From assembly GCF_902652985.1 (NCBI RefSeq), contig NC_047023.1:22940001-23004000 (forward strand): a stretch of DNA of 64,000 bases, in the 5' to 3' direction. The DNA is from Pecten maximus (Eukaryota). This document shows positions 4,020-57,000 of the stretch, one piece after another. Every line of letters begins with the position of its first letter. The first letter of the stretch is position 1. A model generated the notes under the pieces. The model made no database searches, was not told the origin of the DNA, and saw only the letters and a program-made list of their open reading frames with translations. A program made the translations under genes and the position numbers.

Positions 4020-4660
4020 TGTAGTAATAAATACATATCCTCATCCGACATACACCTTACTACAGATACGTAACTTGTCTAACAATAAGGTAGTAATAGA
4101 TATGTAGCCTCATCAGACTTACACCTTACTGCAGATACATAACATTGTCTTACACAAAGGTAGTAACAAATACGTATCCTCATCAGACATACACCTTAAT
4201 ACAGATACGTAACTCGTCATACACACAGATAGCAATAAATATGTAGCCTCATCAGACATACACCTTACTGCAGATACGTAACATGTCTTACACAAAGGTA
4301 GTAACAAATACGTATCCTCATCAGACATACACCTTAATACAGATACGTAACTCGTCATACACACAGATAGCAATAATACGTATCCTCATCAGACATACAC
4401 CTTACTACAGATACGTAACTTGTCTTACACAAAGGTAGTAAAAAATATGTAGCCTCATCAGACATACACCTTACTATAAATACGTTACTTGTCTTACACA
4501 AAGTAGTAAAAAATACGCACCTTATCCGACATACACCTTACTGCAGATACGTAACATGTCTTACACAAAGGTAGTAATAAATATGTAGCCTCATCAGACA
4601 TACACCTTACTATAAATACGTAACTTGTCTTACACAAAGGTAGTAAAAAATACGTATACT
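4020..4660. repeat. Minisatellite, ~69-bp unit, ~9 copies, partial dimeric higher-order structure
   Basis: cctcatcagacatacacc recurs at 4178, 4247, 4316, 4384 and onward; alternating unit variants. Confidence 0.92.
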
Positions 4661-8267: not shown

Positions 8268-10005
8268 TTGTTCTAATCAATCAATGAACTAGACACGTCG
8301 ATTTGTCTACAATAGTTTATGAGAGCTACAATCTGAACCTTTATTTGTTATAATGAAAATCGCATAACAGACGTCATCATTCCTGTCAAGGACATTAAAA
8401 ACATCAATATGTCTGTCATATTTTTTCTTCAGCTCTGCCTGTGACGTAATTGGAACGTGCTTCTCAATCTTGTTTTGAAAAGGTTATTTGAAAAGTATGT
8501 AATTCACCAAGGCGGCCAGAAAACAACCCGACAAGTCACATAAAAACGGTCTGGCCTTCATTCTTATCCTTAAACTTAGTTAATACTTATCCAGTAATTG
8601 GTACAATCAGGTGATCCTTATAAAGAAAATCAAGGTATTAACTGTTTGTAACGAAAATATCAGCAGAAATGCGTCAAACTGGTGGTATAAGTGAAATGAA
8701 ATACTGTTGCTTATAAACTGCCCACGTTAATTCAATAGGTTTCTTGTCAGCTCCAGAAAAGGTTTAATTTTCAGATAAAATATTTCAACGTGATAATTTG
8801 GCATGCTGTCATGTCTCTTGAGTTTTGAAGACGAAACTAATTGGCATTGCGTTATTGTCGACTCGTTGCAACAATAATATGTCGGGTGTTATTACGTCAT
8901 TGCAGCATCGAATTACACTGTATTGTATTCGTACGTTAAATGCTGACAAATGTGGCAATTTACTCATATTATAATTGAAAACATATATGTTTAAGGTTTC
9001 GAATAAAAGATAATAATCAGTAGATTGGACATTTTCCTTGTGTCAATGTGATGACTATCATATTGCTGTCTTGACTAATTTTTAAATGAATCAAAATACA
9101 GTTGAAATATATTTAATTACTTTTATTGGATAATTACCCTTCTGAATCATATTTTGTTAGCAGTAGAAAAATTAATACTTTCAATAAAAATCTCGAAATG
9201 TATCATCTTCAATAGTGTTGATTTATGTTTTATTTGGTAGGGTCAGTAAGAGCATATGCGACAACCCCACAAGATCGGGGTATGAATCAATACTGGTCGA
9301 TGTATTTATGAGTACGAAGCCCGTTCATTCCCATACATTACACCATACAGGGCAATATACGGAACGACCTGTGATAACAGTCACCATGCACTACATCAGG
9401 GTTATAACGTACTGACCGAGTTAAATCCCGATACTATCACGTTAATTTCATTTACTCCTACATTCAAATTTGGTTTTGAATCGCTCCAAAACAAATTGTA
9501 TGTCAAAGAAAAGACGAGGGGTTGTACATGTATGTAAACATCCCCATTGAGGTCTGTGGGCGGTTTTTGTGAAGGTCTTTCCCATTTTACTCATCAAACA
9601 AGTATGTTTTTATGGCCATGTAACACAAAGGAAATTGATTTTTCAAAAGACATACAGGAAATTAGTACTTTTAGATATAAATTCAAATATATATATACAA
9701 CACATGCTTAACAATGACCAGTATTACGTCATACTACATTTGCATCCTTGAATGAATCGTTAGTGAACGTATACAAATTAGGAATTAAAAGCAATAGATT
9801 ATTGATTTGCAATTAAAATATTTCGGTATCATAATGGAAAAATCATATGAATATAATAGTGTTTAAAGGCATATATTCTGTATAGTTGTCTGTCTTTTAA
9901 ACTTCTTTTAATATCGTTTTCTGGACTAATGTGATATTGTACATTAAGACTGTATACTTCATTTTTTGTCTATCTACGCTTCGAATTGTCTTGTTACACG
10001 ATCAG

Positions 10006-10418
10006 TGTCCCTAGCATCACTGATGAGTCCTTAAAATTGGAATACAGTATGGATGGCGGAACTATGATGTTGCTGGCATCACTGACGAGTCCTGAATGAC
10101 GAAACAACTGTATGATTTCATGGCAGCATTGAAGAGTTCTGAAGGCCGAAACAGCAGTATGATATTCCTAACATCACTAAAGAGTCACTAAAATAGGAAT
10201 ACGGTTTGAAAAAAACCTATGATGTCCCTAGCATTACTGATTAAGTCCTGAAATGACAAAATATCTGTAAGATGTCGCTAGCATCACTGACGAGTCCTTG
10301 AATGACGAAACAGCTGTTTGATGTCCCTAGCATTAATGACGATTCCCACAAGGACGGAACAGTTGTACGATGTCCCTAGCATCACATCACTGACGAGTCC
10401 TGTATGACTGTATGATGC
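10006..10418 (+). ncRNA. Tandem array of ~8 minimal type I hammerhead ribozyme motifs (47-62 bp units)
   Basis: Best copy 10281-10324: gcatca-CTGACGA-gtc/cttgaat/gac-GAAA-ca/gc/tg-TT-tgatgt (stem I, core, stem II, GAAA, minimal palindromic stem III, GUH site, stem I'). A second intact core lies at 10076-10116. The other units are degenerate. Confidence 0.8.
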
Positions 10419-11884
10419 ATATCCTTAATTAATGAATCCGTATATACTATATCTATATTCATATGCTCCCTTCAATTAATAAAATCCTCCGATGTGTGAA
10501 CAATCAATAACATCACTTTGTCAGTGCATTTTCACAAAGTGATCTTGTTCTAAAGAAGAAAACAAAAAAAGTGTTTTTTAATAATCTTCCATGTTATTGA
10601 AAACGAATATAGAGACAGTTTTTTTTTACAATTACTAAGGAGGTATGACAATTATTCACCACAAAATTGTCTTCAACGCCGGCTTTTTTAAGTCGTTCAA
10701 AAAATTTTAAACATGAACGCTGGAAATAGCAACATGCAGTTTTTTATAACATTGTATAAAGATTCCCAGTTTCAGATCATGACTTTGCGATGTGATATTT
10801 ACTGAAGTATGTACAACAATGCTGTCACATCCCCGCTTGTTTTTAAAATGAGACGAATTCGTTTCAGTAGTTCTAGAATCCTATAAAATATATTATGTGT
10901 GCAATGAAATATTCTTTAAAATGAATTAAAATGTTGAAAAGGAGAAAAACAAATAAACGAACACACAAAAATTGAGTACGGGTTATATTTTTATTATGAT
11001 CGGTGGAGTATAATCGCTACATTTTATTCACAAGCACTAGAATACGATAGATAACGAAGTAAAATGATTAATTATATAACAAGCGTCCTATGATATCATT
11101 CCTTTTAAACAATGAAACAAGATTAACCTAAGGTAAAATATACGTTGATTTACGTTGGGTAAGATACTGTAATTTAAGTAAGACCCAATTAGTTAAGGTC
11201 AGGCCATACTAGATAAAAAGTTTAAGATGTTTTAAGTCAGACAAATCGAAGTAAGATAATTTAGTTTGGCTAAGAGAAGTAATATAATTAAGTCGGACAA
11301 AGTTTTAGCCTTGCTCTAGCTAAGAGAGGTGAGATAATAAAATATTGCAAGAACGGTAAGATAATTAAGTCAAAGAAAAACAGAGAAAAATACTAAAGAC
11401 AGATTCAGAAACAAGGAATCAAAAAGTTAAATTCGTTATTCATTCATATCTTAACACATCAATAAGATATCAGAAAAAAATTAACTTGCTATTTAATTTC
11501 TTCACAAACTAGTACTCAAATCGCTTCTTTGATTATTAACACCAACGAACTTCAATAAAACAGTTTATGGTTAAATTTTATCAATTTACTTATTCGTAAC
11601 ATATAACCTCGTGGATTAAGATTGAACACCAAAAAAAATTATAATAAAACCATCACGAAAATTAACAATTTTACATTACATGTTTACTCTTAAAGTATTA
11701 ATTAGAATAATGATATACAACATTTATATACCGCACAATCCAATTTACAAACTTACTCCTATGCATTCTTCTTTACATAATAAAATTGAAATTGTTTTCA
11801 ATTGTTACACAATGTATAGAACATAGCTTATATAACATATATTCACTCGACTAATACGATGATAACGTGTGCAGGACGTTTGCG

Positions 11885-13032: not shown

Positions 13033-15180
13033 CTATTCATCCTTCTCAGCTCTGGAGGTTGGTGGTCCAAACATTTGGACAAGCTTGTTACAGACCTTGA
13101 TGTTTCTATCAGTTATTGCAATATAGTATCCAAAGCGTTTTAAAGCCTTGGATCCTATTAGAGTGTCATTGTTCATAGGTGTCGCGTGATCGAAATCGAG
13201 AAGTACCATGTTGCGTCGGCCGTCCTCAGTGAAGTAGGAGAATGCACATTTGTATTCGATTACTGTAAATACATTAAGCCGACTGTGCTCTGATAGGACA
13301 ACAAGAATCGAGCGGGAGTGATAGGTGTGGAGTTTCAGTTCGCTTTCCTTTACCTTTCCTACATCAGTATCCAAGCATGGTGTGTAGACTTCATATCCCT
13401 TTTCTAAAAGAAATGGACGCAGAATTGTTAATACAAAAAATCGAACATCATCATTTTCATCGTCGAAGGAGAGATATATGTCATGCATCCATGATCTGTG
13501 CTGCTTCTTAATGCGCAGTCTTCTGGTGAAAAGAAGTATCTCGAATTTAAAGTAAATGACTACCAGTATCGCCGTTACAACAAGCATAAACACTCCAAAT
13601 CCAGAAGCCATTATACTGATAAGCTTTATATTAGTAGTTTTTGTACAATGTAAGAAATCGTCTGTGACTTCCTGTGCTTCCATTACAACTTTATTCGTGG
13701 AGCACCACAATGGATTACCTGAAAAATTGTCTCCTTTAATTCTCTTCCACTCTCCTATCCAAGTATTATCACAGTCACAAGGAATAGGAGCTTTCCCAAA
13801 TTCAAATTGGTCAGGATCTAGAAGTCTTATTGTTTCAGGAAGACTTTGAAGTTTGTGACCTTTCATAATCACATGTGCTGCTGTTCCAAGCGAATGCACG
13901 GCAGCTTTTGTTAATGTTGCAACGGGATTGTCGCTTAAGTCCAGGAAAGATACATGTTTCAGATAATCTCTGTTCTCGAGGTGAGAAATGTTGTTATTAG
14001 CTAGGTGCAATTGTATAGGATAAATGCTCTCAGGCATCCGCTTTGGGAGAGAGTGCAGACTAGAATTTTGACAGTCAACATTAAGGCGATAACTCGACGG
14101 TTGGTCTACACATGTACAACCTTTTGGACAATCCACTTTAACATCACATTGGAAGAGATGAAGTAAGCTTCTGTTATGCATAATACTATAGAAACTGTAG
14201 TTTGTCATTTTAGGTGGGGCTTCACAGAAAACATCTGTGATATTTTTCATCACGAAGAAACGCTTTTCGAAATCACTTATTACCTTATAAAGTGTAAAAA
14301 ATAAACCCATATGACAATCACAAACTATTGGTGTTTCATCCATAACACATTTTCCATGTACCATCACTTTGGAGAGTAAAGAGTAATCTTCTGGGTTATG
14401 TGCCAATAACACATTAAACGGGTTGTCTACAAGCTTATTGTAGGATAGCCGAACTGTTCCGCTCCCGTAAGTTTTATTAGGGTTCAGTCGATAGTTCTTG
14501 ATGTTAGTGAATTTTCCAAAAATGCTATGGTTAAAGTTTAACTCACAGAACAATGGGTTTTCTTCCATTATATTTGTAACGTCCATAGTTTGAAATATAT
14601 TTTCGGAAAAGTCCATGTGATAGATATGAGTCTTCGCTAGATTAAAAACATTCGGATCCATTCCTTTGATCAAGTTGTGAGAAAAATCCACAACTCGTAG
14701 ATTTATCAAGTTGATGAAAGTCGTATTTGAAATGTATCTCAGCTTATTTCCTTTCAACTTTAACGAATCGAGATGAACCAGACATGATATATTTGACATT
14801 TGTTCTATTCGGTTTTCCGTGAAGTCAATGGTCACCAAATGTGGAAAATCGCAAATATTTACCGGAAAGCGTTTCAAGCGTCCGGATATGTGTACAACAG
14901 AATCCACTGACTGTGGTGTTCTGTCTGTAACGTTAATCAGTCCTGCAGCCCATCGTACAGACACGTACTCGACGAACACATTTCTAATTGGGACGGACCG
15001 GTTTAAAATCCATGTTGGTTGGGAATCGCATGCGCAGCAACGATCAATGTAATGGTTACTTTGACACGACGAAGGACACATTAGATTGTCTTTACGTGGT
15101 CCATTACTAGGATGAAAAGGCAGAAATTGACCTTTGGTTATTTGTACTATAAGGGCAACCACCACTATAGCAAGCTCCAT
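13033..15180 (-). CDS. Toll-like receptor, protostome multi-cysteine-cluster type, 715 aa, intronless CDS (copy A)
   Basis: Signal peptide MELAIVVVALIVQITKG; LRRs (LDSLKLKGNKL, LRVVDFSHNLI); LRRCT (PIVCDC...FCEAP); internal LRRNT (CPKGCTC); second LRRCT (PIPCDC...WC); TM helix; TIR (HDIYLSF...SRSILVVLS...IEY). The start is placed at the ATG shared with copy B. Confidence 0.95.
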   Translation of the reverse strand: MELAIVVVALIVQITKGQFLPFHPSNGPRKDNLMCPSSCQSNHYIDRCCACDSQPTWILNRSVPIRNVFVEYVSVRWAAGLINVTDRTPQSVDSVVHISGRLKRFPVNICDFPHLVTIDFTENRIEQMSNISCLVHLDSLKLKGNKLRYISNTTFINLINLRVVDFSHNLIKGMDPNVFNLAKTHIYHMDFSENIFQTMDVTNIMEENPLFCELNFNHSIFGKFTNIKNYRLNPNKTYGSGTVRLSYNKLVDNPFNVLLAHNPEDYSLLSKVMVHGKCVMDETPIVCDCHMGLFFTLYKVISDFEKRFFVMKNITDVFCEAPPKMTNYSFYSIMHNRSLLHLFQCDVKVDCPKGCTCVDQPSSYRLNVDCQNSSLHSLPKRMPESIYPIQLHLANNNISHLENRDYLKHVSFLDLSDNPVATLTKAAVHSLGTAAHVIMKGHKLQSLPETIRLLDPDQFEFGKAPIPCDCDNTWIGEWKRIKGDNFSGNPLWCSTNKVVMEAQEVTDDFLHCTKTTNIKLISIMASGFGVFMLVVTAILVVIYFKFEILLFTRRLRIKKQHRSWMHDIYLSFDDENDDVRFFVLTILRPFLLEKGYEVYTPCLDTDVGKVKESELKLHTYHSRSILVVLSEHSRLNVFTVIEYKCAFSYFTEDGRRNMVLLDFDHATPMNNDTLIGSKALKRFGYYIAITDRNIKVCNKLVQMFGPPTSRAEKDE

Positions 15181-16759
15181 TTGAAAAACTACAGTCACGT
15201 TTAAATATTTCCGTTGCTCCTCAAAGGAATAGTCTTTAAAACTCACACTGCCTTCAACAACTGTATGTTCTCAATAAATGGAAACCTTTATCGCTACCAC
15301 TTGAACTAATCTTAAAGTAAAGAGTCCACATTTTGTATATTAACTGAAAAATGTCCTTCCTGTGGATTTTTTTTATCTGTTGAGCAGAGCACTTGCACTC
15401 TGTGCATCTTACATTTGTTTTCAATCAGAATTTTAACAAGAAGGAAGTCTGTAAAGATGCCCTTTAATAGGTATGTGATCGCTATTCTTTCTTCCTTATT
15501 GATTCAAATGTTTGCTGAGAAATAATTTTGTCAGGTTTGAGTAAGAAGGATCTTTGATTCTTAGTTCTAGCTTGATACAAAAATATGTTAGAATTTGTTC
15601 CGCGTATGAAAGACGTATATGAGAATAGTTCAATATGTACATTCTTCTGTTGTGTTGATTTTCCTAAGCTTGTGCACGCTTGTAAAGCAGACGTATACCT
15701 CCCCAGGTAAAACACAGAAAGGCTTGAACACTTGCATAATAGTTGATATCAGACATTGTTTATCCAGAGTATCAATACATGTATATGTAAGATAATTAGG
15801 TCAAAGAAAGGTAAGATAATTATGTCAAATAAAGGTAAGATAACTAAATTATATCAAGGTCAGATAATTAAGTAAAATAAGGGTCATATTATAAAGACAG
15901 GTTAAGAAACATTGAAACCAAAAAGTCAATTTTTTGTATTCATATCTTTACGCTTCGTTAAAATATCAGTAAAGAATACTAGTAAATTGCCGTATTAACA
16001 CACATGCTAATACTGAAATCTTTTCGTTGATTATCAACACAAATGGACTTCAATAGAAGTGGTTTGCATAAAAGCAGTTTGATAGTAGTGTAAGATACGA
16101 GGTTAATGTTTTTATCTGGTTAATAAAACTACAAAATGTATGTATATACCGAAATCAAGACTAAATCAGTTTAATCATAGAATGGTTGTCAAAAATATTG
16201 GTGAATGCAAGAAAATGTCAAATGAAAGATATTTCAACCTGAAGATAATCACTTAAAAAGATAGCTACAAATAAAAAAATGCAAGTTTAAAACACTTCAC
16301 ACTCCATATAATATACATTTTATGTATTAATTTTTAGATTACATAATCCTTACGTCTCTGGAAGTGTCTCCGTTATAAATAAACACAAGACATTAGACAT
16401 TGTTTGACAATGCTAAGGGGAAGTAATTGACAACATATAATCTATATATATATATTTTAAGAAGCATCCAGTCAATTAGCTGTTTTGGTTAACACGTTTA
16501 GTACGTAAGGTCGATATTGTTTTTGACACGGAGTCATATGACCTTACTTCAGCCGACCCAAATTTGTGAAAAATGTCATTTTATAATCATAAATATCATT
16601 CTAAACACTTACTATTTCATCAGCCACAAAGCAACCACGTGTTGTAATACAATCTGATGCACATTTATTATCATCACATAACAATGTCTTCATAATACTA
16701 TTGATGTTAAGGAGGTCAGTATTTAGCTACGAAATAAGTTTTTGACACTGATCAAAACA

Positions 16760-18907
16760 CTATTCATCCTTCTCAGCTCTGGAGGTTGGTGGTCCAAACA
16801 TTTGGACAAGCTTGTTACAGACCTTGATGTTTCTATCAGTTATTGCAATATAGTATCCAAAGCGTTTCAAAGCCTTGGATCCTATCAGAGTGCCATTGTT
16901 CACAGGTGTCGCGTGATCGAAATCGAGAAGTATCATGTTGCGTCTGCCGTCCATAGTGAAGTAGGAGAATGCACATTTGTATTCGATTACTGTAAATACA
17001 TTAAGTCGACTGTGTTCTGATAGGACTACAAGAACCGAGCGGGAGTGATAGGTGTGGAATTTCAGTTCGCTTTCCTTTACCTTTCCTACATCAGTATCCA
17101 AGCATGGTGTGTAGACTTCATATCCCTTTTCTAAAAGAAATGGACGCAGAATAGTTAATACAAAAAATCGAACATCATCATTTTCATCGTCGAAGGAGAG
17201 ATATATGTCATGCATCCATGATCTGTGCTGCTTCTTAATGCGCAGTCTTCTGGTGAAAAGAAGTATCTCGAATTTAAAGTAAATAGCTGCCAGTATCGCC
17301 GTTACAACAAGCATAAACACTCCAAATACAGAATCCATTATGCTGATAAGCCGTGTATAAGTAGTTTTTGTACAGTGTAAGAATTCGTCTGTGACTTCCT
17401 GTGCTTCCATTACAACTTTATTCGTGGAGCACCACAATGGATTACCTGATAAATTGTCTCCTTTAATTCTCTTCCACTCTCCTATCCAAGTATTATCACA
17501 GTCACAAGGAATAGGAGCTTTCCCAAACTCAAACTGATCAGGATCTAGAAGTCTTATTGTTTCAGGAAGACCTTGAAGTTTGTGACCTTTCAGACTCACA
17601 TGTGTTGCTGTTCCAAGCGAATGCACGGCAGCTTTTGTTAATGTTGTGACGGGGTTGTCGCTTAAGTCTAGAACTGATACACGTTTTAGATATCCTCTGT
17701 TCTCGAGGAGTGAAATGTTGTTATTAGCTAGGTGTAACTGTATTTGATGAATACTCTCAGGCATCCGCTTTGGGAGAGAATGCAGACTAGAATTTTGACA
17801 GTCAACATTAAGGCGATAACTCGACGGTTGGTCTACACAAGTACAACTTTTTGGACAATCCACTTTAACATCACACTCGAAAAGATGAAGTAAGCTTCTG
17901 TTATGAATAATACTAGAGATACTGTAGTTTGTCATTTTGGGTGGGGCTTCACAGAAAACATCTTTGATACTTTCCATCACGAAGAAACGCTTTTCGAAAT
18001 CACTAATTACATTATAACGTGTCAGCATTAAACCTACATGACAATCACACACTATTGGCGTTTTATCCATAACAAATCTTCCATGTACAATTACTTTGGA
18101 GATTAAAGAGTAATCTTCTGGGTGGTGTGCCAATAACACATTGTACGGGTGGTCTATAAACTTATTGTAGGATAGCCGAACTGTTCCACTCCCGTAAGTT
18201 GTATTAGGGTTCAGTCGATAATTCTTAACGTTTGTGAATTCCCCAAAAATGCTATGGTTAAAGTTTAACTCACAGAACAACGGTTTTTCTTCCATTATAT
18301 TTGTAACGTCCATTGTTTGAAATATATTTTCGGAAAAGTCCATGTGGTAGATATGAGTCTTCGCCAGATTAAAAACATTCGGATCCATTCCTTTGATCAG
18401 GTTGTGAGAAAAATCCACAGCTCGTAGATTTATCAAGTTGATGAAAGTCGTATTTGAAATGTATCTCAGCTTATTTCCTTTCAACTTTAACGAATCGAGA
18501 TGAACCAGACATGATATATTTGACATTTGTTCTATTCGGTTTTCCGTGAAGTCAATGGTCACCAAATGTGGAAAATCGCAAATATTTACCGGAAAGCGTT
18601 TCAAGCGTCCGGATATGTGTACAACAGAATCCACTGACTGTGGTGTTCTGTCTGTAACGTTAATCAGTCCTGCAGCCCATCGTACAGACACGTACTCGAC
18701 GAACACATTTCTAATTGGGACGGACCGGTTTAAAATCCATGTTGGTTGGGAATTGCATGCGCAACAGCGATCAATATAATGGTTACTTTGACACGATGAA
18801 GGACACATGATATTTTCTTTACGTTGTCCATCGCTAGGATGAAAAGGTAGGAATTGACCACTAGTCATTTGCACTATAAGGACAACCACCACTATAGCAA
18901 GCTCCAT
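16760..18907 (-). CDS. Toll-like receptor, 715 aa, intronless CDS (copy B, tandem paralogue)
   Basis: Colinear with copy A, same length (2148 nt), offset 3727 bp, same domain architecture. Confidence 0.95.
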   Translation of the reverse strand: MELAIVVVVLIVQMTSGQFLPFHPSDGQRKENIMCPSSCQSNHYIDRCCACNSQPTWILNRSVPIRNVFVEYVSVRWAAGLINVTDRTPQSVDSVVHISGRLKRFPVNICDFPHLVTIDFTENRIEQMSNISCLVHLDSLKLKGNKLRYISNTTFINLINLRAVDFSHNLIKGMDPNVFNLAKTHIYHMDFSENIFQTMDVTNIMEEKPLFCELNFNHSIFGEFTNVKNYRLNPNTTYGSGTVRLSYNKFIDHPYNVLLAHHPEDYSLISKVIVHGRFVMDKTPIVCDCHVGLMLTRYNVISDFEKRFFVMESIKDVFCEAPPKMTNYSISSIIHNRSLLHLFECDVKVDCPKSCTCVDQPSSYRLNVDCQNSSLHSLPKRMPESIHQIQLHLANNNISLLENRGYLKRVSVLDLSDNPVTTLTKAAVHSLGTATHVSLKGHKLQGLPETIRLLDPDQFEFGKAPIPCDCDNTWIGEWKRIKGDNLSGNPLWCSTNKVVMEAQEVTDEFLHCTKTTYTRLISIMDSVFGVFMLVVTAILAAIYFKFEILLFTRRLRIKKQHRSWMHDIYLSFDDENDDVRFFVLTILRPFLLEKGYEVYTPCLDTDVGKVKESELKFHTYHSRSVLVVLSEHSRLNVFTVIEYKCAFSYFTMDGRRNMILLDFDHATPVNNGTLIGSKALKRFGYYIAITDRNIKVCNKLVQMFGPPTSRAEKDE

Positions 18908-26335: not shown

Positions 26336-26520
26336 CTAGGAATCGGCTCATGCCGGCTGAGAAGACTACATGGTGATAGGAGCTGTTTTGATTTGTGTTC
26401 GTTCCGGAATATTATTAATAGTAAACTGATTTACATATAACCGTTTAAACAATATTACGGTTATCTTTTGCATGACCTTTACAGTACTACTGAACAGTAA
26501 GGTTAGACTGTATGACTTGT

Positions 26521-27045
26521 TGTTGGAGGAGGGCAAACATCTGTGTGAGTTGATGTTGGAGGAGGGCAAACATCTGTGTGAGCTGATGTTGGAGGAGGGC
26601 AAACATCTGTGTGAGTTGATGTTGGAGGAGGGCAAACATCTGTGTGAGCTGATGTTGGAGGAGGGCAAACATCTGTGTGAGTTGATGTTGGAGGAGGGCA
26701 AACATCTGTGTGAGCTGATGTTAGAGGAGGGCAAACATCTGTGTGAGCTGATGTTGGAGGAGGGCAAACATCTGTGTGAGCTGATGTTGGAGGAGGGCAA
26801 ACATCTGTGTGAGCTGATGTTGGAGGAGGGCAAACATCTGTGTGAGTTGATGTTGGAGGAGGGCAAACATCTGTGTGAGTTGATGTTGGAGGAGGGCAAA
26901 CATCTGTGTGAGCTGATGTTGGAGGAGGGCAAACATCTGTGTGAGTTGATGTTGGAGGAGGGCAAACATCTGTGTGAGTTGATGTTGGAGGAGGGCAAAT
27001 ATCTGTGTGAATTGATGTTGGAGGAGAACAAACATCTGTGTAAGC
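26521..27045. repeat. Minisatellite, 33-bp unit (ttggaggagggcaaacatctgtgtgag(c/t)tgatg), ~16 copies
   Basis: Near-identical units; produces 11-aa periodic ORFs in several frames. Confidence 0.96.
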
Positions 27046-27829
27046 TTGAGTGTGTAACGGAAACACCTCACTGCAGCACCAGTACAACTTCGCTAGCCAA
27101 GGGTGTTCAATACGATACTCTCCTTTTCCTTTGCTAGCGATCGAAGTTATTACCAATGAGTAAGGGGAGATAACTCGAAGAGCAATAGTCGCAATTGACT
27201 AATATTTCATTTATGGTGTTATGCATACGGTTATTATTCTCATCGTTAAGCAGTCAGCCAGTGTGAATCAATATCCATTCATTCAGAAATATATTGGGGT
27301 TTATAAAACTTATAATTAGTTTTAATTATTTTTACAGCAAGACACTGTTGCGCCTTAGCCTTATGGCTCAACTGATTTGTTGTTTTGGGGCTGCATCCGT
27401 CGTCTGTAAACTTTCCATGACAAATTTTGATGAAATGTCAGGTGAATCATCGATTTCTTTCACGTTTTCAGTGAAAATGAAATTAGAGATAACCGCCATC
27501 TTTAGAATCGCTTTTGAAGTAAAAGCTCAAGTTATATTTGAATGAAACTTTGTCCGAATCTTAAGTAGAGGATTTGGCAAAACATTCGTGTGAACAAGTA
27601 CATCTACATGATTTTTGCTATTTTTTGTGGACATTGGATAAGTAACGTGTTATTTGTAGCTAGAATGTGCCATGCATTATATTTTAATTAGTTTTATTTA
27701 AGTGTATTAAAGATATATATTTAGTTCATCTTTAATAAACCCTAATTTTTAGTATATCGATATTGATTAGTAAAAGACGACGGGTACACAAGAAGGCTAA
27801 AATGACAAATAGGGTACATTACTGGGCAA

Positions 27830-30974: not shown

Positions 30975-32918
30975 TTAATAGTGAAACGATTTGCATGTCA
31001 CATCAAACGAGGTCTGACGTGTAATACATCGGTTGTCTTCCCATTGCTTCTTCCGGTACCCCTTGCGCATGACGAGCCAAGGATCACTTTCGTACTCCTC
31101 TGCGATGGACTCTTCGTCCTTAGCAATGATCAGGCTGGTGAGGAGTTTTTTCAGGGCCGTCCATTCCTCTTCAGATTCTGTGTGAATCTTCAATAACGGG
31201 TCAGTGCTATTCACAAGACGCCTTGCTCTTCCAATAAGAGGCGAATTTCCTTCCTCTGACATATTGACGACTTCTTTAAGTTGATCCAGCAGTTCTGCGA
31301 TGCGAGTTTCGTCGATAGATTTGAGAGCAGTGAAGAGTTGTTCCCGGAGGGCGTCATATTCCTTGGTGATGGATCCTTCGAAGTACATTGTGTCTAGTCG
31401 GGCTAGGAGCTTAACACCTCGTCCGCGTGTGGTGTTTGCAGCGTCGTTTCGACTTTCAAGAATCTTTGGGATGTTTTCTTCTGTGTAGGGGCCATGCATT
31501 CCTGTCTGTCCGTCCATGAACCTGAGTACCTGGGCCCCACCGATGCCGATACCGTCCACACCAGCATACACAGCATGTTTGATTTCGTTGAATTTAAACC
31601 CGGCAGAAAAATAGGTGACAAGTCCCCTGATGTGGGCCTCATGGACAATTGTCAGAGCCTCCTCAAATGTCAACTGGTACATGATGCATTTGGAAGGGTA
31701 GGTGTCGCTAGCGCCGTCCCAGGTGATCTTATCAAAACCACCAATGGACGTAATCTCGATAGCTCTTGAAGCTATAGCCATTCTCTCATTCAGTTTGCAG
31801 GGCGGAGACTGCTCGTAGTCATCTGTAACGATTTGGTTAAGGTTCCAGGCGGCTGACAAGAACTGTTTCCTGTTTCTCTGAACCTGTCCCCTGAGTGACT
31901 GCATATATCGCACGGCCTGTGACGTGCTCAGTCCCTCCATAGAGACCTTACACTCTGCTGCTCCCTGTAAAAACGCTGCCGTGGCAGACGCTGCAGTTAT
32001 ATTGACTAGCTTCAAGAAATCCTCTTCAAAGTTCCCGGAATCTTTCACTCTTCGTCCAACAAAGTATGTAGTTGGAGCACTGGAACCAACGTGTAATCTT
32101 ACTTTGGAGAAATCGAGCATTGACGGAATTCGATACGACTCGATGTTCTGCCGCGGTAGATTTCGAGGACGCTCCAAATGTTCGACGTGGACAATTGAAC
32201 CTTCCATCCATTCATTAAATCGGGTGGTTCCTAACACATGGCCCTCTCCAGGGTCGGTGAGGGACATGTAGGTCTGTGAAGAAGGGCGGAACCCTGGGGT
32301 GCCCAACCCTCGCGCGTTTTGGTGGTGCCCCTGGTATCCATGGGACAGGTTGTAGTACGCCAACTGGAAGGCGAAGTATTCTACGGGAGTAGGTTGTCGC
32401 TTCTGATCACGAAGTATCTGTGCCATCCTAGTTACAGAAGCCATGTAATCTTTTGGCAGCGTCTCCTTGTCCCAGTGAAGGTGGACTCTGTTGTTGTCAT
32501 CGTCAATAGTCGCCTCAAATAGGGACATATCCCGAGGGGTCGGAATCATGCCCACGTATAACTCGTTTTCTACCCCCCAGGATTCTATCACCTTGGTTGC
32601 CTCTTTTCCTGCCTTCTCCACGTCGGACATAATGCATCTGACTTTCTTTGTTTCTATCATGCTTTCGCATATGTCCCAGAATGGACCCTGGCACTTATCC
32701 TGTCCAGGGGAGATGTGTTTTAGTCTCTCACACACATGGTCTTTAACGGTGCTGAAGTCCACTGCCGTTCTAACCGGAAGTTCTCTCTCGGACCGGAAGG
32801 GCTCGGTCTGACTATCGATTTTTACCCTTACATTGTAGACATTCTGTAGAACATCCTGGAGGTAGGCCAGTGCCACTTTCCTCAATTTCCCTATACCAAT
32901 AGTACACATGTTCTCAGC
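30975..32918 (-). CDS. Main coding exon of an uncharacterised ~648-aa protein with a putative MfnB/DUF556-like TIM barrel
   Basis: Uninterrupted 647-codon frame plus stop, visibly GC-richer than its flanks. Splice acceptor tttcag|GCT GAG AAC ATG at 32920-32919 (phase 0). Motifs: GAAECKV, GGFDKITWDGA, VHEAHIRGLVTYFSAG, GVDGIGIGGA. Coding status is high confidence; family assignment is moderate. Confidence 0.88.
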   Translation of the reverse strand, partial: AENMCTIGIGKLRKVALAYLQDVLQNVYNVRVKIDSQTEPFRSERELPVRTAVDFSTVKDHVCERLKHISPGQDKCQGPFWDICESMIETKKVRCIMSDVEKAGKEATKVIESWGVENELYVGMIPTPRDMSLFEATIDDDNNRVHLHWDKETLPKDYMASVTRMAQILRDQKRQPTPVEYFAFQLAYYNLSHGYQGHHQNARGLGTPGFRPSSQTYMSLTDPGEGHVLGTTRFNEWMEGSIVHVEHLERPRNLPRQNIESYRIPSMLDFSKVRLHVGSSAPTTYFVGRRVKDSGNFEEDFLKLVNITAASATAAFLQGAAECKVSMEGLSTSQAVRYMQSLRGQVQRNRKQFLSAAWNLNQIVTDDYEQSPPCKLNERMAIASRAIEITSIGGFDKITWDGASDTYPSKCIMYQLTFEEALTIVHEAHIRGLVTYFSAGFKFNEIKHAVYAGVDGIGIGGAQVLRFMDGQTGMHGPYTEENIPKILESRNDAANTTRGRGVKLLARLDTMYFEGSITKEYDALREQLFTALKSIDETRIAELLDQLKEVVNMSEEGNSPLIGRARRLVNSTDPLLKIHTESEEEWTALKKLLTSLIIAKDEESIAEEYESDPWLVMRKGYRKKQWEDNRCITRQTSFDVTCKSFHY

Positions 32919-34935
32919 CTGAAACGATAAAATAATGTACTTAACAAAAACCTTTACAGATTAATTAATAAAAAAAGAAGTAAGTATATATCTATGTATG
33001 CACATTCTTCTACGTTAATTGTATACTTATTCCTTATTATTCATAGTTGTTTTAATACTTAACAATTTTAGTGTATATTATGAGTATAAGTAACAGATAT
33101 TCATGAACAAATATTTACTAATAACCAGGAAAATAAGTTTAAAACTACATTTTTATATGTACATAGCCATTGAATAATACATGCTATATATCGTTAGCAG
33201 GAATGATTTTAATGGATCAAGTCTAAAGAAATGGATTATAGATTGGTTTTAATGTTTAGAATATATTTCATAATACTTGGTACACATATACGTGTGCACA
33301 CATTAACCTCAATTCACAAAGACTTGACACATCCATATGACCCAGAACTAAAAATAACCCCCTTAATAACTTGTCAATATTAAATGATCAAGGGTTGATC
33401 TTTGTGATTATCTTATTTCATTGGTGTTCCAGCATCGTGTCACGCCCCTGTACCATGGAAAACAAACTTCAATAACTTATCATTTCCGCCACCATTCCTC
33501 CCTAGATAGATTGTCTTCAGTTTTCTCAAACGTTTATTCAAAATAATTTACAAAATATGTATAGAAAAGCATTAATAATCAAGTACTTTCTATATTAAGA
33601 TCAAAGCCATGGTTTACTACGTTAAAATGTTCTCTGAATTAGACTAATTAAAGTAGGTATTATTATTTGATACTATCATTGTAACAACAATCAAATAGTG
33701 TTATCCTACACTTATATAATGTTTCAAGCATATGTATCTAGATATATGATTTCAATTATAATTACAGCTTCTATATATTAAATGGTAAAATAAAGAAAAT
33801 AATAAATTAAATTCAGACATCTCAGAATGTTATTCTTGTTGTCATAATATACAGTAACATAAATTGTATTCATTAATATAAATTTAACATCGCTATCTAA
33901 TTAGACAGATATTAAAACCCTCGTCTGCGTACAATAAATTAATGTGTCACTTCAATGTGATGTATTTTAGTTGTATACATGCATTACATTATTTCTTAGA
34001 CTTCCGGGTTGTGTTGTTCAAAAGGTGATTAGTATTATAATTTGATGTGTGATAATCACATTCTCCTTACGTCAAAGCCTCCGTATGCATATTCCTTTAA
34101 ATATGCATGTAGGAAGTGACTGAAGAGTGTGATAGTATCTGAAGAAGCTTATAAGGGCTTTCACATGAATATTATATCTCAATATTTTTACTTAATGCTC
34201 TTCCGTATATTTTGTAGATTTTTTTCCTTATTCAATTCATTAGTTCTGTTTTTCTAGACTTGTAAAATATTTCGTCTGCAAAGTCAGATATCTATGTTGT
34301 GTTAGTTACAAGAATTTAAATGTAAATGAGCAAAGCATTTTAATACTGCTACAATTGTAATTGTTTGTCAATATACGTTAAGTTGTTTTATGATATAAAC
34401 ATCTAGTAGTTATATTTTGTTCAATACTTACCGTATAAGATAGCTATAACTACATAGTTTATAAAGTGAGCTAGATTAATAGTTAAAACTTAAAAATTCA
34501 GATAATTATATTACGATCAGTACTTGTAAATATATATCATTGCAAATACAATAAGTCAAGATGAGGAGATGTAGTTCTTTACCAGGGATAATTAAGTCAA
34601 AATATTGAGATATATTTTTGTGATGGCCCCAATAAGCATCCGTGAATATACACCTGTATCAGAGACCCAATTATTCTCGTTATAAGCATTTTTTTGTTAC
34701 TTTGTATTTAAAGAAATTTGTAAGATATATGAAATAACTAAGATTATTTTATAGATATACAAGAAGTATGTCTGTCTAAATAAAACTACGTTTACATGTA
34801 TTTGTTTACCGGGATACGAATACCAATATTTATTACATTTTACCAGTGAAATATCGGAAATTATTCATCCTATAAAATGATATTTTTTCCAGTTAAAACA
34901 CTGTTTACAAATGATAATCGGGAAAAATAAACCGA

Positions 34936-46700: not shown

Positions 46701-49700
46701 AGTCAGGTTATATATATAACGTATTACTAAGGCTCTAGGTGTACAGTCAGGTTATATATATAATGTATTACTAAGGCTCTAGGTGTACAGTCAGGTTATA
46801 TCTATAATGTATTACTAAGGCTCTAGGTACACAGTCAGGTTATATCTATAATGTATTACTAAGGCTCTAGGTGTACAGTCAGGTTATATCTATAATGTAT
46901 TACTAAGGCTCTAGGTATACAGTCAGGTTATATCTATAATGTATTACTAAGTCTCTAGGTATACAGTCAGGTTATATATATAATGTATTACTAAGGCTCT
47001 AGGTATCCAGTCAGGTTATATCTATAATGTATTACTAAGGCTCTAGGTGTACAGTCAGGTTATATCTATAATGTATTACTAAGGCTCTAGGTGTACAGTC
47101 AGGGTATATCTATAATGTATTACTAAGACTCTAGGTGTACACTCAGGTTATATCTATAATGTATTACTTAGGCTCTAGGTATACAGTCAGGTTATATCTA
47201 TAATGTATTACTAAGGCTCTAGGTATCCAGTCAGGTTATATCTATAATGTATTACTAAGGCTCTAGGTGTACAGTCAGGTTATATATATAATGTATTACT
47301 AAGGCTCTAGGTATCCAGTCAGGTTATATCTATAATGTATTACTAAGGCTCTAGGTGTACAGTCAGGTTATATATATAATGTATTACTAAGGCTCTAGGT
47401 ATACAGTCAGGTTATATCTATAATGTATTACTAAGACTCTAGGTATACAGTCAGGTTATATCTATAATGTATTACTAAGGCTCTAGGTATACAGTCAGGT
47501 TATATCTATAATGTATTACTAAGACTCTAGGTATACAGTCAGGTTATATCTATAATGTATTACTAAGGCTCTAGGTATACAGTCAGGTTATATCTATAAT
47601 GTATTACTAAGGCTCTAGGTGTACAGTCAGGTTATATCTATAATGTATTACTAAGGCTCTAGGTATACAGTCAGGTTATATCTATAATGTATTACTAAGA
47701 CTCTAGGTATACAGTCAGGTTATATCTATAATGTATTACTAAGGCTCTAGGTATACAGTCAGGTTATATCTATAATGTATTACTAAGGCTCTAGGTGTAC
47801 AGTCAGGTTATATCTATAATGTATTACTAAGGCTCTAGGTGTACAGTCAGGTTATATCTATAATGTATTACTAAGACTCTAGGTGTACAGTCAGGTTATA
47901 TATATAATGTATTACTAAGGCTCTAGGTATACAGTCAGGTTATATATATAATGTATTACTAAGGCTCTAGGTGTACAGTCAGGTTATATATATAATGTAT
48001 TACTAAGACTCTAGGTATACAGTCAGGTTATATCTATAATGTATTACTAAGACTCTAGGTGTACAGTCAGGTTATATCTATAATGTATTACTAAGGCTCT
48101 AGGTGTACAGTCAGGTTATATCTATAATGTATTACTAAGGCTCTAGGTGTACAGTCAGGTTATATCTATAATGTATTACTAAGGCTCTAGGTGTACAGTC
48201 AGGTTATATCTATAATGTATTACTAAGGCTCTAGGTTACAGTCAGGTTATATCTATAATGTATTACTAAGGCTCTAGGTGTACAGTCAGGTTATATCTAT
48301 AATGTATTACTAAGGCTCTAGGTGTACAGTCAGGTTATATCTATAATGTATTACTAAGGCTCTAGGTGTACAGTCAGGTTATATCTATAATGTATTACTA
48401 AGACTCTAGGTATACAGTCAGGTTATATCTATAATGTATTACTAAGGCTCTAGGTGTACAGTCAGGTTATATCTATAATGTATTACTAAGGCTCTAGGTA
48501 TACAGTCAGGTTATATCTATAATGTATTACTAAGGCTCTAGGTGTACAGTCAGGTTATATCTATAATGTATTACTAAGGCTCTAGGTGTACAGTCAGGTT
48601 ATATCTATAATGTATTACTAAGGCTCTAGGTATACAGTCAGGTTATATCTATAATGTATTACTAAGGCTCTAGGTGTACAGTCAGGTTATATCTATAATG
48701 TATTACTAAGGCTCTAGGTGTACAGTCAGGTTATATCTATAATGTATTACTAAGGCTCTAGGTGTACAGTCAGGTTATATCTATAATGTATTACTAAGGC
48801 TCTAGGTATACAGTCAGGTTATATCTATAATGTATTACTAAGACTCTAGGTGTACAGTCAGGTTATATCTATAATGTATTACTAAGGCTCTAGGTGTACA
48901 GTCAGGTTATATCTATAATGTATTACTAAGGCTCTAGGTGTACAGTCAGGTTATATCTATAATGTATTACTAAGGCTCTAGGTGTACAGTCAGGTTATAT
49001 CTATAATGTATTACTAAGGCTCTAGGTGTACAGTCAGGTTATATATATAATGTATTACTAAGGCTCTAGGTGTACAGTCAGGTTATATCTATAATGTATT
49101 ACTAAGGCTCTAGGTGTACAGTCAGGTTATATCTATAATGTATTACTAAGGCTCTAGGTGTACAGTCAGGTTATATCTATAATGTATTACTAAGACTCTA
49201 GGTATACAGTCAGGTTATATCTATAATGTATTACTAAGACTCTAGGTGTACAGTCAGGTTATATCTATAATGTATTACTAAGGCTCTAGGTGTACAGTCA
49301 GGTTATATCTATAATGTATTACTAAGGCTCTAGGTATACAGTCAGGTTATATCTATAATGTATTACTAAGGCTCTAGGTGTACAGTCAGGTTATATCTAT
49401 AATGTATTACTAAGGCTCTAGGTGTACAGTCAGGTTATATCTATAATGTATTACTAAGGCTCTAGGTAGTACAGTCAGGTTATATCTATAATGTATTACT
49501 AAGACTCTAGGTATACAGTCAGGTTATATCTATAATGTATTACTAAGACTCTAGGTGTACAGTCAGGTTATATCTATAATGTATTACTAAGACTCTAGGT
49601 GTACAGTCAGGTTATATCTATAATGTATTACTAAGGCTCTAGGTGTACAGTCAGGTTATATATATAATGTATTACTAAGGCTCTAGGTGTACAGTCAGGT

Positions 49701-51382
49701 TATATCTATAATGTATTACTAAGGCTCTAGGTGTACAGTCAGGTTATATCTATAATGTATTACTAAGGCTCTAGGTGTACAGTCAGGTTATATCTATAAT
49801 GTATTACTAAGGCTCTAGGTGTACAGTCAGGTTATATCTATAATGTATTACTAAGGCTCTAGGTATACAGTCAGGTTATATCTATAATGTATTACTAAGG
49901 CTCTAGGTGTACAGTCAGGTTATATCTATAATGTATTACTAAGGCTCTAGGTGTACAGTCAGGTTATATCTATAATGTATTACTAAGACTCTAGGTGTAC
50001 AGTCAGGTTATATCTATAATGTATTACTAAGGCTCTAGGTGTACAGTCAGGTTATATATATAATGTATTACTAAGGCTCTAGGTGTACAGTCAGGTTATA
50101 TCTATAATGTATTACTAAGACTCTAGGTGTACAGTCAGGTTATATCTATAATGTATTACTAAGGCTCTAGGTATACAGTCAGGTTATATCTATAATGTAT
50201 TACTAAGACTCTAGGTGTACAGTCAGGTTATATCTATAATGTATTACTAAGGCTCTAGGTGTACAGTCAGGTTATATCTATAATGTATTACTAAGGCTCT
50301 AGGTATACAGTCAGGTTATATCTATAATGTATTACTAAGCTCTAGGTGTACAGTCAGGTTATATCTATAATGTATTACTAAGGCTCTAGGTGTACAGTCA
50401 GGTTATATCTATAATGTATTACTAAGGCTCTAGGTGTACAGTCAGGTTATATCTATAATGTATTACTAAGGCTCTAGGTGTACAGTCAGGTTATATATAT
50501 AATGTATTACTAAGGCTCTAGGTGTACAGTCAGGTTATATCTATAATGTATTACTAAGGCTCTAGGTATACAGTCAGGTTATATCTATAATGTATTACTA
50601 AGGCTCTAGGTGTACAGTCAGGTTATATCTATAATGTATTACTAAGCTCTAGGTGTACAGTCAGGTTATATCTATAATGTATTACTAAGGCTCTAGGTGT
50701 ACAGTCAGGTTATATCTATAATGTATTACTAAGGCTCTAGGTGTACAGTCAGGTTATATCTATAATGTATTACTAAGGCTCTAGGTGTACAGTCAGGTTA
50801 TATCTATAATGTATTACTAAGGCTCTAGGTATACAGTCAGGGTATATCTATAATGTATTACTAAGGCTCTAGGTGTACAGTCAGGTTATATCTATAATGT
50901 ACTACTAAGGCTCTAGGTGTACAGTCAGGTTATATCTATAATGTATTACTAAGGCTCTAGGTGTACAGTCAGGTTATATCTATAATGTATTACTAAGGCT
51001 CTAGGTGTACAGTCAGGTTATATATATAATGTATTACTAAGGCTCTAGGTATACAGTCAGGTTATATCTATAATGTATTACTAAGGCTCTAAGTGTACAG
51101 TCAGGGTATATCTATAATGTATTACTAAGGCTCTAGGTGTACAGTCAGGTTATATATATAATGTATTACTAAGGCTCTAGGTATACAGTCAGGTTATATC
51201 TATAATGTATTACTAAGGCTCTAGGTGTACAGTCAGGGTATATCTATAATGTATTACTAAGGCTCTAGGTGTACAGTCAGGTTATATCTATAATGTATTA
51301 CTAAGACTCTAGGTATACAGTCAGGGTATATCTATAATGTATTACTAAGGCTCTAGGTGTACAGTCAGGTTATATCTATAAT
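46701..51382. repeat. Satellite array, 44-bp unit (agtcaggttatatctataatgtattactaaggctctaggtgtac), ~106 copies
   Basis: Highly homogeneous head-to-tail units with about three recurrent variant positions and no spacers. Confidence 0.98.
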
Positions 51383-51660
51383 TTATATAGATTGTCTAAA
51401 AGAGTATTCCCCTTTGTTTGCAGAATTGTTTTTGTTTTGAAACGAGACTGACTGTATTGTTACATTGAAGAGCTTATTAGCACAAGTAACAAACATCTTG
51501 TGCAGTGTTTTAGTTTGAATTATAGGCATATTGACGATGGGATATATACTACAGATCTTGGAATAGAGAACACTACAGACCTTTCAATATATCAGCCGCT
51601 TATTTTTTTGATTGATTGATTGATATTTTTTTTTCTTTATTATTTTGATTTGAATTAATT

Positions 51661-54071: not shown

Positions 54072-57000
54072 CGGGGAGGCCAAGGTCCAAAGTGTGTAAA
54101 TAGTGCAGTACCAGCTACTTTTAACTCGGATAAAAACTGTTTGAAATGTATTGTGTGGAATATTGAAGGTTTATTATATAAACTCAAACATCATTTTCAT
54201 GAATTAAATGAAGTGGTAAAAGATACAGATATCTTTGCATTCACTGAAACATTTCAAAAGAAACCTAAGGAACTTAACAATGCCTTTAAGGGGTGTATTG
54301 CTTTTGAAAATATGAGAAAACTTAATCTGAATAAAGCATCTGGAGGTGTGGCTGTATTTATCAAATCCGAACTTGAACCATTTGTGACGCAAATAAAGCC
54401 TGAGAAATATGATGAAATGATATGGTTAAAGATCGACTTAAACAGAACTGGTGCAACTTCGAACATTATTATTGGGTTTGTTTATTTACCACCTGAAGGT
54501 TCAGTGTTCTATTATGATAAACAAAGTGATAGTGGTATAACAATGCTTGAAACTGCCATTAACGATATGAAGAGTGAATTTAGTGGTTATGATGTTGTAG
54601 TAGCTGGTGACTTAAATGCCAGATCAGGTACCCTAAGAGACTTTATTATTGATGATGATACAGACTATATTCCTGGTCTAGAGTATGCATATACAGACAC
54701 ACAAAATGTGCGTACAATCCGTAACAATACTGACTCACATCTAAATAACTTTGGGTATGAACTAGTTGAAATGTGTGCTGTACATAATATGTTGATCGCA
54801 AATGGGAGAATCCCTCCTGACAACGAAGGAAATCTTACATATATCAGTGGCACGAGTGGTAGTCAGATAGATTATGTGCTTGCGGATGGGTCATTGTTTA
54901 GGCATATTGAAAAATTAGATGTATTGTCTTGTGACATTTCTAAGCACTTCCCTGTATGTTTTGAGATAAAAATTGCAGACAGTCCTCTAGATAATGACCC
55001 ATCTACAGACACTGGTAGTACTGTATACAACAAATTTAAGTGGAAACCTGAAAATTCAGTTACCTTCTCATTAGAAGTAAATAGCGATGAATTTAAAGAG
55101 AGGTTTAACAGTGTATTGCTAGGCAATGATACAGATGTAGATACCCTGACTTGTGAAATCACCGAATTACTTTGGGATGTGGGTACTAAAGCCAAAATGA
55201 AATGTTCGAAGGTTAAGCCTACTGTCCGAAATGCCTTGTGGTTCGACAAAGAGTGCGAGGAATTAAAACATAGAAAGTGTACACTTTTAAATGACTTTCG
55301 AAAGACTAATAGTCCGGAATTCCTTGAAAAGTACATCAATGCCAAAAAATCATATCAATCTATGTGCCAGAGTAAACGCAAAGACTACAATGCAACACTT
55401 GAAAGTGAGCTTATAACATCTGCAAGTAACAAAAACTCTTGTGTTTTCTGGAATAAAATAAAGTGTATTCTCAAACGAGGGAACTTTGTCACTAACAATA
55501 TCAACCCAAGTGATTGGAGAAATTATTTTAAAGATCTTCTGAATCCAGTAGGTCAATCTGTTGAAGATGAATTCACCACGAGTGTGTCAGACTTTCTATG
55601 TGAGCATAATCAACACTGTGAGACGTGTGTTGCCTCCAACTTAAATTCACCACTTAATGACAATATAACGGATGGTGAAGTAACGGCCGCAGTCAGAAGT
55701 CTGAAAAACAGTAAATCACCCGGTGAGGATGCCATTCCTGGAGAATTCTACAAAAGAACTCTACATGTAGGTATGAGCAAATTACTTTGTAAACTTTTCA
55801 ATCTTATCCTTAGTAATGGCAAAGTCCCAAAAGCTTGGTACACAGGTATCATTATTCCGTTATTTAAAAAAGGCGATGTCAATAACACTGGCAACTACAG
55901 AGGAATATCATTATTATCAGTGATGAGTAAAATATTTACAAAAATTGTATGTGCACGTCTAACTAACTGGACAGCAAGGAACAATATTCTACCGGAAGAG
56001 CAGGCCGGTTTCCGCAAAGGTTACTCAACAGTGGACCAAATATTCAATCTACAATCTTTAGTACAGAAATACCTTTCTAAAAAAGGAAATAAGTTTTATT
56101 GTGCATTTGTAGATTTTGCCAAAGCATTTGACTGTGTCGACCAAAATAAATTATTCTATGCAATGATACACAACAATCTACATGGACGGATATTATCTGT
56201 GCTACATGACATGTACTCGAATGTTAAGGCTGAAGTTAAACTGTCTGACGGCTCGTTATCACATCCATTTGATTGTAGTTCTGGAGTGAGGCAAGGATGT
56301 ATTTTAAATCCACTACTATTTGCCATTTATATTAACGAACTTTCACACATGCTAAATGAGGAATTTGAGTATCGTACAGGGATCTGTGTATCAGATGTGT
56401 TCCGAAACTTAACCCACCTGCTATTCGCAGATGACTTAGTACTGATAAGTGATACGGTTATTGGTCTACAGAGAAAACTTGACATTCTGGCAAAATACTG
56501 CAAGAAGTGGAATATGAAGGTCAACTTGGATAAAACCAATGTGATTGTGTTTAAAAATGGTGGACATCTCTCAGCATCTGAAAAGTGGTTTTATAATGGT
56601 AACACCATCACAAATGTTAGTTACTATAAATATCTAGGGCTTCTCTTCTCGTGTCGTCTGAAATGGAGTAAAGCATGTAAAACGCTTGCCCAACAAGCGT
56701 CCAAGGCATTAAATATGGTAAAAAGTTGTCTCGTGAAACTTGGTAGAAGAGATCCCAAGGTGGCATTCAAACTATTTGATTCCATGATTTCTCCGATCCT
56801 ATTCTATGGAGCTGAAATATGGGGAACTGAATACCAAAAGGACATAGAAGCTGTCCATCAAAGATTCTGTAAATGGATCCTATGTACTGGTATCAACACC
56901 AATAATAATATAGCCATTGGAGAGTGTGGACGTCACGAGTTGTGTGTGAAGTACATGTGTAAACCTATTAAGTACTTATTGCGTCTATTCAAAATGGACC

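Follow-up and report, generated by a model that had tools for sequence, protein, structure and literature searches.

The window, a stretch of 64,000 nucleotides, lies on contig C9 of the AT-rich, 918-Mb Pecten maximus genome. Two paralogous long open frames with leucine-rich repeats are found on its reverse strand (13036-15270 and 16763-18907; 745 and 715 amino acids), followed by a 661-amino-acid open frame without a Pfam match (30978-32960, reverse strand) and a 1182-amino-acid frame with the endonuclease and reverse transcriptase domains of a LINE-type element (54072-57617, forward strand). The window also contains a 44-bp minisatellite of 106.5 copies with 97% matches (46701-51386; TRF) and shorter minisatellites at 4021-4657 (69 bp), 26508-27049 (33 bp) and 58653-59096 (52 bp). 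At 10006-10418 on the forward strand, about 2.6 kb downstream of the nearer leucine-rich-repeat frame, lies the feature discussed here: a decayed, eight-unit array of a 49-bp hammerhead ribozyme minisatellite family, delimited by TRF and unit comparison. Positions within the ribozyme (C3, G12, A13, C11.1) follow standard hammerhead numbering.

The hammerhead array in the window

The array consists of eight head-to-tail units, as the initial annotation had read it. Their starts, set two bases before C3, are at 10018, 10080, 10127, 10175, 10236, 10285, 10334 and 10388, which is 4-9 bases beyond those first given. Units 1-7 are 62, 47, 48, 61, 49, 49 and 54 bases long, unit 8 is truncated, and TRF reports periods of 47 and 49. 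Measured against the family majority, individual units carry 3/38 to 11/48 substitutions, which marks 10006-10418 as a worn copy of the family. A complete core (CUGAnGA, GAAA and UH) is retained by units 2 and 6 only, the two for which it had been claimed. None of the other six is canonical. All units but 1 and 4 had been described so, which fails for units 3, 5 and 7, with their core changes, and for the truncated unit 8.

Two of the units are longer than the rest because of a block duplication that relates units 1-3 to units 4-6 (10010-10166 and 10167-10333, forward strand), which places a longer unit at positions 1 and 4. Units 1 and 4 are each other's best match, and blastn aligns 10010-10174 with 10167-10333 (74% over 169 bases, E 4e-18). 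The alternation of ~61-bp and ~49-bp units in the initial annotation is thus real as regards the long units 1 and 4, but it does not reflect two designed unit types: it results from a single local duplication, and the motif of the ~61-bp unit is absent from every other family locus fetched. A match to this motif at 19576 was rejected, its context not being a hammerhead. The 17-base linker, as first written out, occurs nowhere verbatim in the window, since every copy differs by at least one base.

Unit 6 (10281-10324, forward strand) is the best hammerhead in the window, with a full core, a 6-pair stem I, a 3-pair stem II, an intact 8-base palindrome and a predicted cut after 10318 (GUU). Unit 2 (10076-10118, forward strand) combines a full core with a 4-pair stem I, a 3-pair stem II and a broken stem III palindrome, and its predicted cut falls after 10112 (GUA). 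Judged by sequence, both cut sites had been placed correctly, and the motif had rightly been called a minimal type I hammerhead with a palindromic stem III. Rfam Hammerhead_1, the check proposed at the time, does match both units, at 28.7 bits for unit 6 (E 2.4e-4) and 19.2 bits for unit 2 (E 0.34), with both scores remaining below the gathering score of 34. Unit 2 folds no better than its shuffled versions (z +1.14) and is likely a weak or dead ribozyme, while the minimum free energy (MFE) structure of unit 6 mispairs the core (z -0.16).

Between neighbouring units, the 3′ strand of stem I, a 5-nt loop and the next 5′ strand of stem I form a linker hairpin (10319-10335, forward strand). By sequence and folding, the junction of units 5 and 6 (10261-10317, forward strand) is the best candidate in the window for a type III hammerhead, the form with closed stem-loops I and II and an open stem III. 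This fold is not obtained there: an A-A pair sits beside the predicted cut site, and the MFE structure is not a hammerhead. No other junction in the window keeps the type III fold either. As core loss has spared units 2 and 6 only, the locus probably cuts poorly or not at all.

A dispersed 49-bp family and its parent element

The genome-wide copy search suggested by the initial annotation reveals a family. A junction 30-mer occurs 541 times exactly and 2,795 times within one mismatch, against 0 for the control in both cases (reversed in the exact count); given the exact counts, the window array is not a chance occurrence. A query of 191 array bases yields at least 172 matches from 40 of 1219 candidates, distributed over many contigs and lying in arrays with a 49-bp period. 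The first 100 listed matches of another pattern correspond to 34 places on the 60-Mb contig C1, which suggests a family of several hundred loci genome-wide. A perfect core together with stems II and III is present in ~580 units (75 in the first 100 of 770 pattern matches). The window locus is, then, a decayed member of a real, dispersed, genome-wide family. Spacing can deviate locally, as in the array at G000:C1:7806095-7807786, which is mostly spaced at 51 bp in the match list.

The sample that we analysed comprises 88 arrays of at least three units (1355 units), of which 45 belong to loci recovered with the window query or via flanks and 43 to 40 pattern-list loci. Unit calling left out windows with more than 16 mismatches or indels, and L058, L072, L116, L117 and L139 were removed as duplicates. 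Called units are spaced at 49 bases in 1122 of 1267 cases. Intact units number 330 of 1355, and 36 of the 88 arrays have none. At three loci (L023, L027 and L183), oppositely oriented arrays lie 1-2 kb apart, an arrangement reminiscent of inverted Penelope-type insertions.

Family arrays have common 5′ and 3′ flanks. Most of the 32 loci reached via the 5′ flank contain a single decayed hammerhead, and six carry long arrays between the same flanks. A profile built from 22 single-hammerhead copies describes the parent of the arrays: a non-coding unit of ~400 bp. It contains one type I hammerhead, and its 3′ end is often found ahead of its 5′ start. Copies of this parent are ~20% diverged. In a set of 86 copies, the 5′ ends are scattered, while 38 of the 3′ ends fall at model positions 460-479, about 95 bases past the cut site. 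Nineteen copies start in the previous unit, and 11 align over more than one unit (~1.4 units at most); long tandems were not seen among the 86. Two readings of the flanks, as the decayed end of an open reading frame (5′ flank) and as terminal inverted repeats of a DNA element, were dropped once the parent unit proved circularly permuted. At L097:716-1893, a parent unit that contains an array adjoins, in head-to-tail order, a second unit whose sequence has a single hammerhead and breaks off at the cut site; this hints at ribozyme cuts as the ends of some parent copies.

From its sequence, the parent is likely a non-LTR retrozyme. Metazoan non-LTR retrozymes are non-coding, with a stated range of 150-450 bp (PMC7229834) that includes the ~400 bp of the parent, and they share with this family an AT-rich, non-coding sequence and a type I hammerhead with a short palindromic stem III. 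The parent has one such hammerhead per unit and occurs in head-to-tail, more-than-unit copies. Unlike these retrozymes, however, it is found as old copies of 1 to 1.4 units rather than as long tandems. Its majority sequence is no more self-paired than shuffled sequences (z -0.29, a weak test given the age of the copies), which leaves a stable, rod-like circle unsupported.

The initial annotation was right to link the array to retrozymes and Penelope-type elements. Its more specific proposal, an amplified terminus of a Penelope-like element (PLE), comes close, except that the partly tandem parent unit is non-coding and ~400 bp long and that no coding Penelope sharing it was found. Were the arrays amplified termini (pseudo-LTRs) of a coding PLE instead of a small non-coding unit, the minimal hammerheads that sit in PLE pseudo-LTRs (PMC4209133) would provide a precedent, and the parent does resemble Penelope-type insertions in its constant 3′ end, truncated 5′ ends, partial tandems and the inverted piece alongside (PMC8557442). 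The genome moreover contains at least 150 GIY-YIG matches. However, what lies upstream of the unit start is the unit's own 3′ end (19/86 copies) and not an open reading frame. Parent homology is absent from the 30 GIY-YIG loci examined among those matches, and no GIY-YIG or reverse transcriptase frame is tied to the flanks in loci L021-L185. We found no coding Penelope partner in the loci covered and regard a coding origin of the arrays as very unlikely. Separately, a young GIY-YIG family with near-identical copies (L189, L190, L191, L199, L203, L206 and L209) carries half a hammerhead core downstream of the domain. This half core lacks proper stems and resembles the core-only motifs described for Naiads (PMC8557442).

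Traces of the parent are faint in the window. Parent flanks are undetectable at the array (scores of 20 on either side, under null 99th percentiles of 33 and 28). By sequence, the 3′ end of the array is in the parent breakpoint phase, with the last stem I strand followed by the first bases of the parent (10412-10420, forward strand). On the reverse strand, 240 bases upstream of the array, nhmmer detects an inverted, heavily decayed parent piece (9635-9766; model positions 340-466, 25 bits, E ≤ 0.01) that consists of a hammerhead remnant and the 3′ part.

Junction folds and the origin of the arrays

RNA from intact sister arrays is predicted to fold across two units into a type III hammerhead. 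The MFE structure of a natural three-unit stretch is a hammerhead of this kind, with a 6-pair stem I closed by a 5-nt loop, a stem II of 4-5 pairs and an 8-pair stem III in which the palindromes of neighbouring units are paired. For the 57-base intact junction, the folding energy is -19.6 kcal/mol (z -3.75), compared with -6.1 kcal/mol and a probability of 4e-5 for the one-unit type I fold. Among sister junctions at the 4 loci scanned, the best Rfam Hammerhead_3 (RF00008) match covers all 54 model positions at 44.9 bits (E 2.8e-7), short of the gathering score of 48.5, and sister single units reach 36.1 bits with Hammerhead_1 (RF00163), above its gathering score of 34. Core and stems are kept in 114 of 1122 junctions, and the hammerhead is the MFE structure in 61 of those. 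Sister junctions thus have the closed stem-loops I and II and the open stem III of the type III form. Three bases of loops I and II are complementary, and both loops diverge to a degree similar to that of other unit positions. The linker hairpin, which had been described as competing with the ribozyme, is in intact sisters stem-loop I of the fold across the junction.

This fold has relatives in several known systems. As in the minimal hammerheads of PLEs and their double-hammerhead fold (PMC4209133, PMC6765202, PMC7761336), stem III is unstable in the monomer and the palindrome pairs two copies. The junction fold corresponds to the inner half of the double hammerhead (PMC4209133, PMC6155905), with the spacer shrunk to a pentaloop; because 49 bases invariably separate a unit from its partner copy, the dimer's inner ribozyme would become a closed type III fold. 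This fixed distance sets the arrays apart from the PLE double hammerhead, as does the lack of a coding element among those found, and stem II has four pairs without the extra base of PLE minimal motifs (PMC4209133). Type III hammerheads of plant satellite RNAs, viroids and LTR retrozymes (RF00008, PMC6155905) likewise have closed stem-loops I and II and an open stem III, but the ribozyme described here exists only across two units, and its loops are not specially conserved. Finally, the satellite-DNA hammerheads of newts, cave crickets and schistosomes also place one hammerhead in each tandem unit, in units of a few hundred bases as opposed to 49 bases in short, dispersed arrays (PMC7229834, PMC6155905).

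The array unit equals the parent hammerhead plus six upstream bases, in line with the earlier remark that the unit is little more than the ribozyme. The array junction has a sequence that a duplication at a two-base microhomology could have produced by joining the stem I strands into a hairpin. The outer pair of this hairpin, C-G in the parent, has become U-G or U-A in arrays, a change that keeps the pairing and may be a founder effect. Array-bearing copies do not form a distinct young flank subfamily: their flank majority is only 4 positions off the parent, with a pairwise divergence of 0.339.

How the arrays reached their loci can be read from their ends. Parent flanks are detected on both sides in 28 of 87 arrays, on one side in 25 and on neither in 34, the window array being among the last. 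The 5′ ends lie at the parent breakpoint in 49 of 87 arrays and at the ribozyme cut site in one; the 3′ ends do so in 48 and nine, respectively, where about seven cut-site ends are expected by chance. The ends follow the parent breakpoints rather than the cut site, which argues against rolling-circle insertion of 49-nt circles and agrees with one duplication and later expansion in place. The rolling-circle product of the short unit that the initial annotation had envisaged is thus not supported. With at least one parent flank in 53 of 87 arrays, the 49-bp unit also does not show the pattern expected of a retrozyme inserted as cut or circular RNA, namely ends at the cut site or in free phase and no parent flanks. 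In this respect the arrays differ from non-LTR retrozymes, whose RNA-circle insertion their ends do not suggest, and they further differ in that the 49-bp repeat is nested in a larger retrozyme-like unit and has a mere 5-nt loop as its spacer.

We consider it quite unlikely that the 49-nt unit is nonetheless a mobile RNA, with cut monomers that circularize and are copied by rolling-circle reverse transcription into new sites or into old parent copies. Such an RNA would be served well by the junction, itself a good type III hammerhead, and would account for the 34 arrays without detectable flanks. Yet ends lie off the cut site even in flankless arrays (cut-site ends in 1/47 at 5′ and 6/46 at 3′), and the core is not conserved.

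Our preferred explanation, which we hold to be probable, is that the dispersed 49-bp minisatellite arose from the parent hammerhead by one tandem duplication and subsequently grew by slippage or unequal exchange, and not by pasting of 49-base RNA circles. Its starting point would be the ~400-bp element scattered in the genome, which carries a single type I hammerhead, ends at a constant 3′ position but varies at the 5′ end, and in some copies exceeds one unit. This element is presumably a non-autonomous retrozyme that was once moved by a Penelope-type enzyme. The hammerhead and six upstream bases, found head to tail in the arrays with stem I strands closing a 5-nt loop, would have been duplicated; copies carrying the duplication may then have spread, with arrays expanding in place. 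RNA from intact arrays would form the type III hammerhead across two units and be cut into 49-nt pieces. In most units the core has since been lost, as at the window locus outside units 2 and 6. We count against this explanation the 34 of 87 arrays, including that of the window, that have no detectable parent flank, as well as the weak self-pairing of the parent majority sequence and the failure to find an autonomous partner in 30 of the 150 GIY-YIG loci.

Very short units are not new in kind, as retrozyme families range in length from 51 to 972 bp in a study that also discusses growth as minisatellites (Li et al. 2026, 10.64898/2026.07.22.740005). The retrozyme definition given there, a hammerhead in every tandem unit, fits the arrays, and its 51-bp family, compared by length only, may be a similar case. 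A satellite born from the ribozyme inside a retrozyme is a route discussed in the same source. In the literature searched, which left most subscription papers outside reach, neither a genome-wide hammerhead-only minisatellite lying within a retrozyme nor a type III junction in hammerhead-only arrays turned up.

Divergence, G12 changes and transcripts

Sequence divergence gives no sign of purifying selection on the core, in keeping with our preferred explanation: over 1355 units, core positions other than G12 and A13 diverge like non-core positions (0.105 versus 0.100, p 0.92), and intact units are a minority. Units as a whole, by comparison, look younger than their own flanks (0.099 versus 0.221 in 26 of 45 arrays; 0.117 versus 0.204 in a second comparison, 12 of 45). 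The pairwise divergence of units is 0.175, against the value of 0.339 for flanks, and units are about half as diverged as flanks, whether G/C or A/T sites are compared. This difference is not what plain neutral decay would produce, and it therefore also counts against our preferred explanation.

For a mobile 49-nt RNA, in turn, the young units are a favourable point, while single hammerheads and their flanks age alike (0.199 versus 0.201, 38 copies). Against this, 20 single copies outside the model also have a less diverged hammerhead (0.161 versus 0.196 in flanks, p 0.017), so part of the gap between units and flanks is not specific to arrays. Preferential growth of pure repeat runs is a neutral candidate for the young-looking units; exchange between loci or RNA templates are alternatives.

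Within the core, G12 stands out. This base is the general base of the hammerhead (PMC6155905). Genome-wide, the junction 30-mer is found unchanged 541 times, changed at G12/A13 565 times and changed at C11.1 only 82 times. Among the first 100 matches listed are 40 single G12 changes in all three directions (14 A, 14 C and 12 T), nine single A13 changes and three double changes. In 67 arrays, single-copy G12 changes are ordinary (24 versus a median of 18), whereas amplified changes are raised (30 versus a median of 6, p 5e-5). G12 is changed more often than other sites, a pattern that our preferred explanation does not predict. The variants are not a few founder subfamilies, as there is no linked haplotype across arrays. 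CpG decay alone is rejected as well, in view of the low count at the partner C11.1 and of transversions as common as transitions; at the other CpG of the unit, the first 100 listed comprise 18 changed and 82 unchanged. A13 looked like a hot site in the first array set, a reading we rejected: the query of that set carried the variant, and the value for A13 is 0.12 in the second set.

One reading of the G12 excess retains the same origin of the arrays but has transcribed arrays cut actively, such that hosts, or the full-length RNA of the element, favour arrays changed at G12. The genome-wide counts, the three directions of change, the restriction of the excess to amplified changes and the unlinked alleles speak in its favour. 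Several observations point the other way. Changes at further core sites, which ought to abolish cutting too, are not elevated in the 88 arrays, nor does array length correlate with intactness. The excess is smaller with a second 32-mer pattern (25 G12 changes per 75 unchanged, first 100 listed); both array sets are biased at G12, the first through its query (p 0.067) and the second through its pattern, and the 7 flank-found arrays show no excess (p 0.61). As G12 lies in a CpG and next to two inverted repeats, template-switch repair could also favour such changes. Overall, we deem selection at G12 unlikely.

A bolder combination of these elements appears doubtful to us. One duplication would have turned a weak type I hammerhead into an efficient type III string, hundreds of intact junctions would shred transcripts into 49-nt RNAs, possibly circular, and selection or RNA-templated homogenisation would remove cutting via G12 while keeping the unit otherwise young. 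If true, a 49-nt, ribozyme-only RNA would be the smallest retrozyme-type RNA. Apart from this reading, the family is a natural case in which DNA duplication by itself permutes a type I hammerhead to type III, and intact copies of it exist. With ~580 units that keep a perfect core and stems II and III, transcribed arrays could act as RNA breakers, and the G12 excess and the young-looking units may bear on host selection against ribozyme activity in repeats.

Part of an array is present in 19 of 24 listed runs, of which one is on record as RNA, with most shares being small. The array is covered by contigs of four runs: one recorded as RNA, two guessed to be RNA and one of a second organism. The presence of family sequence in the three RNA or presumed RNA runs would suit a mobile 49-nt RNA, but such contigs carry no ends, strand, size or level and may include DNA. 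In the run of the second organism (X15), 24,625 contigs fall on one array, and their loose ends have the same parent flanks, which indicates that the family is common to this second organism.
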